Shown here in pieces: positions 44,227 through 53,788 of a DNA stretch of 64,000 nt. The stretch's first letter is position 1, and each line of letters opens with the position of its first letter. Source of the DNA: Gammaproteobacteria bacterium (GTDB taxonomy: Bacteria > Pseudomonadota > Gammaproteobacteria > JADZEE01); the NCBI GenBank assembly GCA_050183625.1, contig JBFXBD010000006.1:42653-106652 (forward strand). The letters are read 5' to 3'. A model generated the notes under the pieces. That model was not told where the DNA came from. It did no database searches and saw nothing but the letters and a program-made list of their open reading frames with translations. The position numbers and the translations under genes were made by a program.

Positions 44227-45792
44227 GTGGCGATGAACGACGATGCGGCCGACACCCTTGCCCGCCTGATCGCGCGCTGCGTTGCGCGATTCGGCGCGCG
44301 GCCGGCCCTGGTCGATGGCGATCGGCGCTGGACCTACGCCGCCCTGGATCGCGATCGCCGCGCCGCCGCGCGCGCCTTCATCGCCGCCGGCGTGCAGCCC
44401 GGGGATCGGGTCTGCCTGTGGGCGCCGAACAGCGCGGAGTGGATCATCGCCTGCCTGGGCCTGCAATCGGCCGGCGCCGTGCTCGTGCCGACCAAACCGC
44501 GCTACCAGGGTGGCGCGGCGGCGGACAACGTCCGCCGCAGCGGCGCGCGGATCGCGGTGACCGCCGGCGAGGTCCTCGGTGTCGACTATCCGGCGGCGCT
44601 GCGCGCGCAGCGCCTGCCTGCGCTGGAGCGGATCGTGGTCCTCGGCGCAGCCGATGCCGCGGACGACGGCTGGGCACGGTTCCTCGCCGCAGGCGAAGCG
44701 GTCGATCCGGCGCTCGCCGAGGCACGTGCGCAGGCCGTCGGGCCCGACGATCTCAGCGACATCATGTTCACCTCCGGGACCACCGGCCAGTCCAAGGGCG
44801 TGATGCTGTCCCATGCGCAGACCGTCCGCACCTACACCGGCTGGTCGCAGTCGGTCGGCCTGTGCGCGGACGATCGCTACCTTGTCCCGGCACCGTTCTT
44901 CCATTCGTTCGGCTACAAGGCCGGCTGGCTGGCAGGCTTCATCGCCGGCGCGGCGGTCTACCCGCTGGCGGTATTCGAGGTCGATCCCGTGCTGGCGCTG
45001 ATCCAGCGCGAGCGCATCACCTGCCTGCCCGGGCCGCCGACGATCTTCCTGTCCATCCTCGCGCACCCCCGGCGCGCCGCGTTCGATCTCTCCAGCCTGC
45101 GGCTGGTGGCCACCGGCGCGGCCAACGTCCCGGTGGAGATGGTGCGACGGTTGCGCACCGAGATGGGCATCGGCGTCGTGCTGACCGGCTACGGGCTGAC
45201 CGAGGCCAGTGCGACCGTGTCCATGAGCCGGCATGATGACGACCCCGAAGTGATCGCCACGACCGTCGGCAGGCCGATCGCCGGCGTGGAAGTGCGCTGC
45301 GTGGACGCGCGGGGGCGGTCGGTAGCGGTCGGCGAGCCGGGCGAAATCCTGGTGCGCGGCTACAATGTGATGCGCGGCTACCTGGACGATCCGGCCGCGA
45401 CCGCCGCCGCGATCGACGCCGAGGGCTTCCTGCACACCGGCGACGTCGGGGTGATCGATGAGCGCGGCTACCTGCGGATCACGGATCGGATCAAGGACAT
45501 GTTCATCGTCGGCGGGTTCAACTGCTACCCGGCCGAGATCGAGAACACGCTGTACCGCATGCCGGGGATCGCGCAGGTGGCGGTGATCGGGGTGCCCGAC
45601 GCGCGCATGGGCGAGGTCGGCAAGGCGTTCATCGTGCGCAAGGCCGGCGCCGATCTCGCCGCGGACGACGTCGTCGCCTGGTGCCGCGCCGAGATGGCGA
45701 ACTACAAGGTGCCGCGCCACGTCGAGTTCGTCGACGCCCTGCCCCTGAACGCCTCGGGCAAGGTCTTGAAGCACCAGTTGCGGGCGTCATGA
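44227..45792 (+). CDS. ANL-superfamily acyl-CoA synthetase (AMP-forming)
   Basis: AMP-binding motif [16 protein letters not shown] and C-terminal ligase-family lysine region. Confidence 0.85.
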
Positions 45793-45912
45793 GCAGCGGC
45801 GCCATCGCCGCGAGTCCGAACCCGGAATGTCCCCGGTCCCCGCACTCGCCGGCCGTGCGGGTTCACCTGGATCCTGGCGCCAAAGCGCCCCTTGTACACG
45901 GAGGATGAAAGC

Positions 45913-46896
45913 ATGAACGTACGTCAATCGACCCGTTGCGCCGCCGCGCTCGTCCTGGCGCTTGGCGCCGGCAGCGCCGGCGCCCGGACCATCGGCATCA
46001 TGGGCGACAGCCTTTCCGATACCGGCAATCTGTCGGCCGCGCTGAGCTCGGTGTCGTTCGGCCTGGTCGACATCCCGTCGAGCGACACCTACTACCAGGG
46101 CCGGTTCTCCAACGGTCCGATCTGGGTCGATTATCTAGAGTCCGCCAATCCGCAATGGTCCGTGGTCAGCATTGCCGTCGGCGGCGCCTACACCGGCAGG
46201 TACGGTGAAGTCGACAACACGGGAGACAACGATTTCGCGGCGGTGCCGATCTTCGGCGGTGCCTTGCAGAACGCGGCGACCGGGCTGGCGTCGCAGCGGG
46301 ATTCGGTGCCCGACCTGCACGGTACGGACGTTTCCGTGGTGATCTGGGCCGGGGCGAACGACCTGCTGTATGCCGCGGACCTGGGCTACGCAACCGCGTC
46401 CGACATCGTCACTCAGGCCATCGCCAACATCGGCGCGGCGGTCGACGCGATGCTGGCCAAGGGCGCGGACGGCGTGTACGTCGTCAACATGCCGGATCTC
46501 GGGCGCACGCCGCGCGCGCTGGTGGAGGGACGGCAGGGCGAACTGACCGCGGCGGCCAGCCTGTTCAACCAGCAGCTCGCGATCGATGTCATCGACACAG
46601 CCATGGGCGTGCGGCTGATCGACGTCGCCACGCCGTTCGCTGCGCTGCTCGACGCGCCCCTCGACTTCGGGTTCACGAACGTGACCCAGGGTTGCTTGGA
46701 CGATTTGTTCGACACCACGCCCTGCGCCGATGCGCAGGGGTTGTTGTTCTGGGACGAGTTGCATCCAACGACCGCGGGGCACGCCGCGATTGCCCAGGCG
46801 TTCCAGGATGCGCTGGCGCCGGTACCCGTGCCGCCGGCGCTGCCGCTGCTGGCGGGCGGCCTCGCGCTTCTCTGGCGCCGCCGGTCCGCGGCCTGA
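45913..46896 (+). CDS. Secreted SGNH/GDSL lipase/esterase with PEP-CTERM-like C-terminal sorting signal
   Basis: Signal peptide, GDSLSDTGN block I, …GANDL…, and a C-terminal DxxH catalytic pair. The tail reads VPVPPALPLLAGGLALLWRRRSAA: a Pro-rich motif, a hydrophobic helix, then a basic cluster. Confidence 0.75.
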   Translation: MNVRQSTRCAAALVLALGAGSAGARTIGIMGDSLSDTGNLSAALSSVSFGLVDIPSSDTYYQGRFSNGPIWVDYLESANPQWSVVSIAVGGAYTGRYGEVDNTGDNDFAAVPIFGGALQNAATGLASQRDSVPDLHGTDVSVVIWAGANDLLYAADLGYATASDIVTQAIANIGAAVDAMLAKGADGVYVVNMPDLGRTPRALVEGRQGELTAAASLFNQQLAIDVIDTAMGVRLIDVATPFAALLDAPLDFGFTNVTQGCLDDLFDTTPCADAQGLLFWDELHPTTAGHAAIAQAFQDALAPVPVPPALPLLAGGLALLWRRRSAA

Positions 46897-46897
46897 C

Positions 46898-52230: not shown

Positions 52231-52278
52231 TCGAGCGCGGGCCCGAACGCCACCGACACCCGCTGGCTTGGACAGCCG

Positions 52279-52794
52279 TCAGGCCGGGGTCGGAAATCCC
52301 AGCGCCTTCCACTTCTCGGCGTTCGCGGCCACGCCGTCGGCGATCGCCTTCCAGCGCGCGGGGCTGGTCTCGGTGATTCTCATGTCGAACGAGGTGGCGC
52401 CGCGGAACTCCAGCACTTCCACCCCGTCGGGCCCGGCCTCGTAGCCGTAGGGCTGGTGGGCCGGCAGGAAGAAGCCGCCGCCGGCTTCGAACGTGCGGTT
52501 GCCCATGCGCAGGCTGCCGGCAACGACGTAGTACAGGCAGTCGACGTCATGGGTGTGGCGCACGAGCTTGAAGTCCGGCGCGAAGCGCAGGCGCACCAGG
52601 CTCAGGCCGGCCTTGGGATCGCAGAACACGACGCGCATGTCCGCGCCCTGGGCGAGCAGCGCGCCGGTCGCCTCGGGGTCGATTCCGGGCGGGAACGTGA
52701 TCGGCTGCATGATCTCGTAGTTGTCGGCGACGGCGTTGCCGTCGAACGTCGAAAACCGGGCATCGTCTGCTGTTTCGGTTGCGGTCGTGTTCAT
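52279..52794 (-). CDS. Cupin-domain protein
   Basis: Small beta-barrel cupin with HTHD…YYV region, 171 aa. Confidence 0.6.
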   Translation of the reverse strand: MNTTATETADDARFSTFDGNAVADNYEIMQPITFPPGIDPEATGALLAQGADMRVVFCDPKAGLSLVRLRFAPDFKLVRHTHDVDCLYYVVAGSLRMGNRTFEAGGGFFLPAHQPYGYEAGPDGVEVLEFRGATSFDMRITETSPARWKAIADGVAANAEKWKALGFPTPA

Positions 52795-52840
52795 CCGAAT
52801 GGCTCCTGATGGCGGTCGGGCCGATGGCTGGAGCGCACCT

Positions 52841-53788
52841 TCACAGTGCGCCGTGGCCGCGATGCGGCCGGATCATCACTGCGCGGCCGCCCTCCCAGGC
52901 GGCGATCACGTGTTCGCCGGGGCGGATCTTCTCGGGTACCTCGTCGAGCGTCATCTCCACGCCCAGGTGCCCGCGCACGAAGCTGCGCGCGTCGAGTCCG
53001 AGCACGACTTCGCTGCCGGTCTCATCGTCGCGGATGGTGATCGCCTCCGGCCGGACCGCAACCACGTCGCCGATGATCGGGCGGTGCGCCGAGGCCGGCA
53101 GCACGCGCAGATCCATCGACAGCCGGAAGCGGTCCGAGCGATTGCGCATGCCGCTGTGCGGCGTGGTGAGCGAGAACATCAGCACGTCGCCGGGGTGGTA
53201 GTCGCTGCGCCGCCAGGCGTCGTCCGGGATCGTCGCGGGGGCGATCGCGGGCGGATTGCCCACCGCCTCGTGCATGATGCCGCGCGTATGCCAGCCCTCG
53301 GCGACGGCCAGGCCGCCGCTGCGCGCGTCGATGTCCACGAGCGGGATCCAGCACACGCGGAAATCGATGCCGCGGTTGGAGTAGCCGTCCTGGTGCCGAT
53401 AGACGAAGGGGTCCGCGCCGTCGTCTGCGCCCGGCGGCACGACGCGGTGCTCCGTGATTGGCACCCACCAGGGTGCCTCGCCGAGCGCCGCGCGGAAAAA
53501 GCCGTCGATCGACGGCGTACGCACGAAGCGCTGCCAGGATCCCGAGGTCTCGATCGGCACGACCTTGAAGGGAAAGTTCGACAGATCGGCGCCGTTCCAG
53601 ATCGGTACTTCGCTGCCGGGGGCGATGACGCCCATGCCGGCGAGGATGTCGAGCCAGGTGCGCCGTACGGCGGCGACGGCCTCCAGGTCCAGCACGCCGC
53701 GGAAGAACAGGTAGCCGTCGCGCGCGTACTGCGAATCGAGCCGTGCCCGGTTGCCGAGTGCATCGTTGGCGATATTGAGTGCTTTCAT
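52841..53788 (-). CDS. Phytanoyl-CoA dioxygenase (PhyH)-family Fe(II)/2-oxoglutarate oxygenase
   Basis: PhyH-like length and layout. HxD (HQDGY) and a downstream His (TPHSG) are consistent with the 2-His-1-carboxylate facial triad. Confidence 0.65.
   Translation of the reverse strand: MKALNIANDALGNRARLDSQYARDGYLFFRGVLDLEAVAAVRRTWLDILAGMGVIAPGSEVPIWNGADLSNFPFKVVPIETSGSWQRFVRTPSIDGFFRAALGEAPWWVPITEHRVVPPGADDGADPFVYRHQDGYSNRGIDFRVCWIPLVDIDARSGGLAVAEGWHTRGIMHEAVGNPPAIAPATIPDDAWRRSDYHPGDVLMFSLTTPHSGMRNRSDRFRLSMDLRVLPASAHRPIIGDVVAVRPEAITIRDDETGSEVVLGLDARSFVRGHLGVEMTLDEVPEKIRPGEHVIAAWEGGRAVMIRPHRGHGAL

Follow-up and report, generated by a model that had tools for sequence, protein, structure and literature searches.

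What do ten accessory genes, lodged on both strands between purL and the genes upstream of it, do for the bacterium that carries them, and do they act together? The genes (positions 44227-54371, mixed strands) lie in a 64,000-nucleotide stretch, hereafter the window, of contig JBFXBD010000006.1 (144 kb) from the metagenome-assembled genome of an uncultured gammaproteobacterium (GenBank assembly GCA_050183625.1). A first-pass annotation, made from the sequence alone, had described them as an accessory locus that activates and tailors one acyl compound under a local AraC regulator. We found that they form a lineage-specific accessory island, present here and absent from the syntenic site in relatives. 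The explanation of its function that we favour, with moderate confidence, is the scavenging and first-step breakdown of an ester-bound hydrophobic carboxylic acid, which would be lipid-derived, branched or alicyclic. All ten genes and the palindromic repeat listed in the first-pass annotation were recovered where it had placed them, both in the translations and by matches to Pfam and NCBIfam profiles (motifs and signal peptides were read directly in the translations). The window has a G+C content of ~70% and all gene calls in the locus had a G+C content at third codon positions (GC3) of 0.83-0.92, which gave a clean map of open reading frames (domain matches in brackets):

44227-45792, plus strand: lig1, ANL acyl-CoA ligase of the FadD3 family, first gene of unit A (AMP-binding, 6.5e-90)
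45892/45913-46896, plus strand: exported SGNH/GDSL lipase or lysophospholipase (Lipase_GDSL, 1.1e-23)
46898-48556, plus strand: lig2, second ANL ligase (AMP-binding, 4.4e-64)
48614/48656-49483, plus strand: crotonase-fold enzyme of the EchA12/PRK06210 type (ECH_1, 1.2e-45)
49561-50625, minus strand: S-adenosylmethionine (SAM) methyltransferase with an N-terminal winged helix, unit B (HTH_65, 5.5e-17; Methyltransf_31, 8e-17)
50847-51138, no strand: imperfect palindrome of ~290 nucleotides (52-nucleotide arms, nested repeats)
51226/51232-52230, plus strand: AraC-family regulator with a Cupin_6 sensor domain, unit B (Cupin_6, 2.3e-37; HTH_18, 4.1e-22)
52279-52794, minus strand: small cupin, last gene of unit C (Cupin_2, at the family level)
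52841-53788, minus strand: PtlH-like Fe(II)/2-oxoglutarate dioxygenase of the PhyH family (PhyH, 2.9e-9)
53844-54371, minus strand: exported SRPBCC (Bet v 1-fold) protein, first gene of unit C (Polyketide_cyc2, 2.4e-33)

Some details of the earlier description had to be amended. It ended the locus at 53788 and so excluded the SRPBCC gene (53844-54371) that its own text described. The methyltransferase gene, presented as divergent from the ligase operon, is actually convergent with the crotonase gene, and the AraC gene is divergent from the methyltransferase gene only, being convergent with the cupin gene.

An insertion at a conserved site

The island occupies positions 44114-54506 of the window (~10.4 kb), from the start codon of purL (44113) to the stop codon of a secretin_N-like gene, secN (54507). 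Using the DUF7931 gene as an anchor, we compared this neighbourhood in four related lineages:

L101 (NCBI metagenome-assembled genome), PurL 69% identical: purB-DUF7931-secN-purL, with ~10 bp from secN to purL
L017 (JGI, 388-kb contig), PurL 61% identical: purB-DUF7931-secN-purL-smr
L102/L103 (ENA), PurL 59% identical: purB-DUF7931-purL-smr, without secN
L019 (4.74-Mb genome), PurL 56% identical: purB-DUF7931-secN-purL-isochorismatase-smr

The site is empty in all four lineages, with secN or DUF7931 directly abutting purL and nothing between the genes. The comparison with relatives that the first-pass annotation had proposed thus bears out its description of the locus as accessory, and a gain on this branch is the simplest reading of the 10.4-kb difference. 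The purB-DUF7931-(secN)-purL-smr block is kept across the four lineages; beyond it, L017 and L102/L103 continue with ispF-ispD-ftsB-eno, and the L019 sequence has ispF at its edge.

The island is not mobile at present. Pfam and NCBIfam searches detected no integrase or transposase among its genes, no tRNA gene occurs across the window, and no repeats above noise were found at the island edges. An Rfam scan returned nothing above chance, as did scans with promoter and terminator consensus sequences, which were uninformative. Codon usage gave no signal of foreign origin, the island being indistinguishable from the housekeeping genes of the window (codon adaptation-like index of 0.63-0.76 for island genes versus 0.73 +/- 0.06; GC3 of 0.85-0.91 versus 0.89). 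Because of this host-like composition and the lack of mobility signs, the island is either old or was acquired from a donor whose composition resembled that of the host. The organism is also present in runs SRR27751815 and SRR27751816, and a separate short-read (Logan) assembly of it, L015, was 100% identical over 5180 bp, corresponding to positions 51110-56289. The 3' ends of the AraC (52215-52240) and secN (54497-54522) genes, stop codons included, form a 26-nucleotide inverted repeat (85% complementary) on either side of unit C; with 77 pairs of this kind in so G+C-rich a region, it does not rise above noise.

Enzymes and regulator of the island

The island comprises at least three transcription units. 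Unit A, on the plus strand, contains lig1, the lipase gene, lig2 and the crotonase gene, separated by gaps of 120, 1 and about 99 nucleotides. In unit B, the methyltransferase (minus strand) and AraC (plus strand) genes diverge over 600 nucleotides that carry the palindrome. Unit C, on the minus strand, consists of the SRPBCC, dioxygenase and cupin genes (gaps of 55 and 46 nucleotides); it is attached to the end of the purB operon, being co-oriented with purB-DUF7931-secN and lying 135 nucleotides downstream of secN. A strong G+C hairpin with a stem of ~14 bp and no U tract (53790-53840) is located between the SRPBCC and dioxygenase genes.

Both ligases of unit A possess the AMP-binding and AMP-binding_C domains, the ANL motif and the C-terminal lysine (SGKVLK in lig1; YTSGTTAEPKG and SSKIKK in lig2). 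With 727.6 bits, lig1 passes the equivalog cut-off (657) of the NCBIfam model NF005801, 'FadD3 family acyl-CoA ligase', which lig2 fails with 245.9 bits. The solved structures nearest to lig1 are feruloyl-CoA synthetase and 4-coumarate ligases, and those nearest to lig2 are aryl-AMP ligases (salicylate-AMP and DHB-AMP) and FadD13. In fact, lig2 falls below every NCBIfam equivalog cut-off, the closest models being cyclohexanecarboxylate-CoA and medium-chain ligases, and a scan of a genome collection with lig2 returned only ligases 25-33% identical to it. Its GTG start lies one nucleotide past the TGA of the lipase gene and is the same start as that of the 552-amino acid NCBI protein P0001 (100% identity). 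We also considered whether lig1 might be the steroid-ring HIP-CoA synthetase FadD3 itself, a role that is improbable, as no steroid C/D-ring degradation genes were found in the 64-kb window.

The lipase matches Lipase_GDSL with 85 bits (cut-off 23.6), carries a signal peptide and has the catalytic blocks GDSLSD, GANDL and DELHPT readable in its translation; its nearest solved relative is PlaA of Legionella (9.8e-22). Its C-terminus (46822-46896), VPVPPALPLLAGGLALLWRRRSAA, is a hydrophobic, Arg-rich tail resembling a sorting signal, which scores just below the cut-offs of PEP-CTERM (TIGR02595; 14.5 versus 16 bits) and MYXO-CTERM (14.3 versus 15.85); no exosortase gene was found within the window. 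The last protein of unit A had been called an enoyl-CoA hydratase. Its crotonase fold stood up to scrutiny, and the canonical two-Glu hydratase did not: in alignments with 3hrx (PaaG-type) and 3qre (EchA12), Ile/Leu and Phe occupy what we take, from rat enoyl-CoA hydratase and PaaG, to be the two catalytic Glu positions. A Glu is found in the segment AAEYG, opposite VPDSG of the PaaG-type 3hrx, and the match to PRK06210 (308 bits) is below the cut-off of 341. The label 'enoyl-CoA hydratase' thus probably says more about this enzyme than is warranted.

The dioxygenase of unit C belongs to the Fe(II)/2-oxoglutarate-dependent PhyH family (38 bits, cut-off 22). The iron triad H131, D133 and H210, together with R221, is invariant in 38 sequences of the family. 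Its AlphaFold model (pLDDT 95) retrieved Fe/2-oxoglutarate dioxygenases as every top structural match, the best being PtlH (31% identity; TM-score of 0.79 for the predicted model), which was also the best match by sequence (8.9e-24); a C-terminal beta domain of ~75 residues has no counterpart in PtlH. A phytanoyl-CoA 2-hydroxylase proper was rejected as an identity for this enzyme, human PHYH (2a1x) being only 15% identical and ranking 37 among the structural matches (TM-score of 0.47-0.57). The 171-amino acid cupin matches weakly when searched alone (Cupin_7, 22.7 bits, cut-off 27). Its single-sequence structure model was unusable (pLDDT 35), so we scanned the family instead: 29 of 40 homologues match Cupin_2 and 27 of 40 match Cupin_7, which, by sequence, makes this clearly a cupin family. 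Residues H79, H81 and C85 are invariant across the homologues, with the Cys presumably replacing the usual Glu of cupin motif 1. The family is rare, with 596 cluster representatives (50% identity) among 1.84 billion at E<=1e-3. The SRPBCC protein starts at 54371, downstream of an AAGGA ribosome-binding site, and its signal peptide, MKRFWVGLALLSAAASG, could be read directly; an independent gene call gave 175 amino acids.

The two genes of unit B appear to stand apart from the others. The methyltransferase gene starts at 50625 and not at the start of the longer open reading frame. In the PDB, its product matches TnmJ (2.9e-56) and Rv2258c of Mycobacterium tuberculosis (1.1e-43), and its winged-helix dimerisation domain is Rv2258c-like. 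The family is unusually well conserved across domains: among 260 plasmid records, proteins of haloarchaeal megaplasmids (Halalkalicoccus, Natrinema, Haloterrigena) and of Rhizobium, Mesorhizobium and Paraburkholderia replicons are 55-61% identical to it, and the neighbours differ in all four of the homologue contexts examined. The regulator is a member of the AraC/XylS family (HTH_18, 4.1e-22; HTH_AraC, 5.1e-15; Cupin_6, 2.3e-37) whose nearest NCBIfam model is RclR (98 bits, cut-off 400). Full-length homologues (33-47% identity) occur in 66 plasmid records and, in seven of eight annotated plasmid contexts, are divergent from small stress or detoxification genes, the partner being a SAM methyltransferase in three, OsmC in two and DsrE in two. 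Those methyltransferases are not detectably homologous to that of the island. Thus, the idea of one locus under a local AraC regulator was not supported, given these contexts and the division into at least three transcription units. It is most economical to suppose that AraC controls the divergent methyltransferase and not the whole island; the pair most likely serves stress responses or detoxification as a unit of its own and merely occupies the same insertion site.

The palindrome between these two genes has arms of 52 nucleotides that are 92% complementary and folds as a single strand with about -220 kcal/mol. It had been called MITE-like (miniature inverted-repeat transposable element); the inverted arms are present, the likeness is only structural, and the 64-kb window holds no second copy. 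The L015 assembly ends at 51110, inside the right arm, and such a break in a short-read assembly hints at repetition.

Neighbourhoods of homologues and rival explanations

Do the enzymes of units A and C belong together? A metagenome scan with an alignment of the dioxygenase subfamily yielded 80 loci in 48 dereplicated groups, 32 of which had at least 3 kb of flanking sequence; we clustered the called neighbours and counted the groups with each type of gene within 4 kb. Short-chain dehydrogenases/reductases (SDRs) were found in 18 of the 32 groups, TonB-dependent receptors in 10, ANL ligases, AraC-family regulators and Rieske oxygenases in nine each, and acyl-CoA dehydrogenases and crotonases in six each. 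The ligases include lig1-like sequences (45-50% identity) in four groups and lig2-like ones (51-52%) in L030 and L089/L092, close to the ceiling of 57% for lig2 homologues. The AraC-family regulators match that of the island only in the helix-turn-helix half and are of other subtypes.

Several of these arrangements recall the island. On the Paraburkholderia sprentiae plasmid pl1WSM5005, genes for a helix-turn-helix regulator, a CMD protein, PhyH, an alpha/beta hydrolase, an AMP-binding protein and a crotonase-related protein follow one another in this order, the AMP-binding protein being 54% identical to lig2 and its gene overlapping that of the hydrolase by 4 nucleotides. A Rhodococcus plasmid carries a dioxygenase homologue amid a crotonase, thiolases, CoA transferases and an unrelated cupin. 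Homologues of lig2 adjoin a crotonase gene in L030 (51%) and directly adjoin crotonase genes on Rhodococcus rhodochrous and Sphingomonas plasmids (48%). Within 15 kb, a Mycobacterium branderi plasmid encodes a crotonase, a lig2-like ligase (46%) and, behind a hydrolase gene, a lig1-like FadD3-family ligase (51%). These neighbourhoods suggest that both ligase types, crotonases and the dioxygenase subfamily tend to travel together in settings suggestive of hydrophobic-acid catabolism, and they make a functional tie between unit A and the unit C dioxygenase plausible. The proposal that the locus handles one acyl compound thereby gains partial support, for the ligases, the crotonase and the dioxygenase, which are recurrent neighbours in unrelated bacteria. 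A search of the literature for PhyH-family genes with CoA ligases or AraC regulators in bacterial clusters found nothing relevant.

The insertion, the domain identities and the recurrent co-occurrence are observed; the substrate, the order of steps and the regulation we infer. The exported GDSL lipase would free the acid outside the cytoplasm, and the SRPBCC protein, exported as well, may be its periplasmic binding partner. The two ANL ligases would turn the acid or its intermediates into CoA thioesters, the PtlH-like dioxygenase would hydroxylate the acid or its CoA ester, and the non-canonical crotonase would isomerise or otherwise process the thioester, the products passing to a core beta-oxidation encoded elsewhere. 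That the dioxygenase is closest to PtlH, a hydroxylase of a terpenoid carboxylic acid, counts in favour of this explanation. Ligase-hydrolase coupling was also considered as support for a relay from lipase to ligase and was weakened by the partner hydrolases lacking signal peptides. A conserved SRPBCC-PhyH-cupin triad was rejected, as the three did not co-occur in the 80 loci.

A number of observations make the association a loose one and weigh against such a scavenging route. A fixed gene order is conserved nowhere. The closest homologues of lig2 (53-57%; L013, L014, L104) have no PhyH, GDSL or lig1 neighbour, and in L100, which holds the nearest PhyH homologue (54%), the surroundings are housekeeping genes apart from one adjacent SDR. 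Homologues of the GDSL lipase, cupin, SRPBCC protein and methyltransferase are absent from all 80 dioxygenase loci, which speaks against the single locus first proposed. The island has no acyl-CoA dehydrogenase, thiolase or transporter and is therefore not a complete pathway. The hydrolases coupled to ligases in Paraburkholderia and Mycobacterium are cytoplasmic alpha/beta hydrolases without signal peptide. In addition, soil bacteria have large numbers of ANL ligases, crotonases and SDRs, and the apparent enrichment near PhyH is read from raw neighbour counts. Finally, the organism has no close sequenced relative (nearest non-self matches: lig2 57%, dioxygenase 54%, DUF7931 60% identity) that could date the insertion or show it to be a single event.

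The main competitor, which we regard as less probable and still a serious possibility, is that accessory genes with no functional relation to one another were gathered unit by unit in a permissive purL-purB gap, forming a mosaic that has in common a location and not a pathway. Its three or more transcription units of mixed orientation would be expected, as would four families that never accompany the PhyH subfamily, methyltransferase and AraC families each with its own, different recurrent context, and nearest lig2 and PhyH homologues in unrelated neighbourhoods. However, in several lineages that are not related to one another, lig1/lig2-like ligases (45-54%) and crotonases recur only a few kb away from genes of the PhyH subfamily, and the M. 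branderi plasmid likewise carries both lig1-like and lig2-like ligases. Chance would hardly produce this if there were no relation between units A and C. That the island is a small cluster making or tailoring a secondary metabolite, with aryl or acyl adenylation, hydroxylation, methylation and an SRPBCC cyclase, seems to us extremely improbable. It can draw on the resemblance of the methyltransferase to TnmJ of an enediyne pathway (2.9e-56) and of the dioxygenase to PtlH of pentalenolactone biosynthesis, on the salicylate-AMP and DHB-AMP ligases as the nearest solved relatives of lig2, and on the match of the SRPBCC protein to the 'polyketide cyclase' Pfam family. Yet neither the island nor the adjoining sequence encodes a polyketide synthase, nonribosomal peptide synthetase, terpene synthase, carrier protein or exporter, and two of the proteins, the lipase and the SRPBCC protein, are exported. 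The abundance of TonB receptors, acyl-CoA dehydrogenases and SDRs at homologous PhyH/ligase loci also indicates catabolism.

The genes flanking the island bring in one further candidate, the turnover or tailoring of diffusible signal factor (DSF):

33428-34135, plus strand: ispD
34138-34575, plus strand: ispF
34873-35784, plus strand: rpfF-like crotonase gene
35840-38386, minus strand: rpfC
38396-39454, minus strand: rpfG
39610-40230, minus strand: smr
40172-44113, minus strand: purL (start codon at 44113)
54507-55307, minus strand: secN, secretin_N-like gene
55304-55819, minus strand: DUF7931
55824-57191, minus strand: purB

RpfB has a role in DSF turnover, and no FadD/rpfB gene flanks rpfF in the window. 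The ligases and crotonase of the island, which starts 4.8 kb from rpfG and encodes the enzyme types that such turnover requires, might thus replace the missing rpfB and process cis-2-unsaturated fatty acids made by the rpfF-type crotonase. L017 has neither rpfF-rpfC nor the island; in the corresponding position it retains an rpfG-like gene (66% identical), abutted by ispF where rpfF-rpfC are missing (16082-17607 of L017); because it is without both, rpfF-rpfC and the island are both lineage-specific, a coincidence of little weight. However, the housekeeping genes smr and purL separate the two clusters. As for the ligases, lig1 reaches 262 bits against the cut-off of 884 of the FadD equivalog NF006523 and FadD is not among the best matches of lig2, so that neither is a FadD/RpfB orthologue. 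Even the 'rpfF' of the window, which passes the generic crotonase equivalog PRK08788 (338 bits versus 177), does not reach the RpfF equivalog (225 bits, cut-off 550), and the same gene combination occurs on Paraburkholderia, Rhodococcus and Mycobacterium plasmids in catabolic settings. With proximity as its sole tie, the DSF connection that the first-pass annotation had raised becomes very unlikely.

Among the flanking genes, the longest smr reading frame runs 59 nucleotides into the 3' end of purL, and its true start is probably further downstream. The DUF7931 gene, labelled 'acyltransferase' at NCBI, has 4-nucleotide overlaps with its neighbours, and the secretin_N-like protein, with 266 amino acids, is far below secretin size.

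Known systems and significance

The closest parallels to the island are the CoA-dependent catabolic clusters for alicyclic, terpenoid or steroid-like acids of Actinobacteria and Proteobacteria. In common with them, it has a ligase (lig1) that passes the FadD3-family equivalog, a second one (lig2) nearest to the cyclohexanecarboxylate and medium-chain types and an EchA12-type crotonase, and homologues of its genes are co-located on the M. branderi, Rhodococcus and Sphingomonas plasmids. Unlike them, it has no acyl-CoA dehydrogenase, thiolase, SDR, Rieske oxygenase or transporter, lacks the ring-degradation genes that accompany true FadD3, and is small, with ten genes of which three probably have no part in it. 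We also considered and rejected a secondary-metabolite cluster, xanthomonadin-type biosynthesis and steroid degradation, as the core genes of each are lacking.

Several of the individual proteins also resemble characterised ones. The dioxygenase keeps the His-Asp-His triad and the 2-oxoglutarate-binding Arg of PtlH, the 1-deoxypentalenic acid 11-beta-hydroxylase of Streptomyces, but its score (85 bits versus an NCBIfam cut-off of 550), its extra C-terminal beta domain and its context, which looks catabolic and not terpene biosynthetic, set it apart. The logic of a ligase with a PhyH-family dioxygenase recalls mammalian peroxisomal alpha-oxidation, whereas the island encodes no 2-hydroxyacyl-CoA lyase or aldehyde dehydrogenase and human PHYH shares only 15% identity with its dioxygenase. 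The regulator, with its Cupin_6 and AraC helix-turn-helix domains, has RclR, an AraC-type regulator with a divergent target operon, as its nearest model, but at 98 bits versus 400 it is not RclR. Likewise, the lipase shares the SGNH blocks and signal peptide of the Legionella GDSL lysophospholipase PlaA but scores 109 bits against an equivalog cut-off of 450 and has the PEP-CTERM/MYXO-CTERM-like tail.

A broader proposal, which we consider improbable, is that the PtlH-like dioxygenase subfamily, the lig1/lig2-type ligases and the EchA12-type crotonase mark an uncharacterised CoA-dependent pathway for a branched or alicyclic carboxylic acid, widely scattered in Gamma- and Betaproteobacteria and Actinobacteria. 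The present lineage would have acquired it together with rpfF-rpfC and equipped it with an exported lipase and an exported binding protein, perhaps in order to process fatty-acid-like signals or lipids of a host or plant.

The locus looks like an ordinary kind of lineage-specific accessory catabolic island in an unusual, poorly sampled lineage and not like a new type of system. It is a clean example of an island inserted into a deeply conserved purine-gene block, with little import beyond annotation and no bearing on any long-standing open question. The comparison does flag a PtlH-like dioxygenase subfamily that occurs repeatedly with CoA ligases, crotonases, SDRs and TonB receptors, and identification of the substrate of this subfamily would allow proper names for a few hundred soil-bacterial proteins now annotated as 'phytanoyl-CoA dioxygenase family'.

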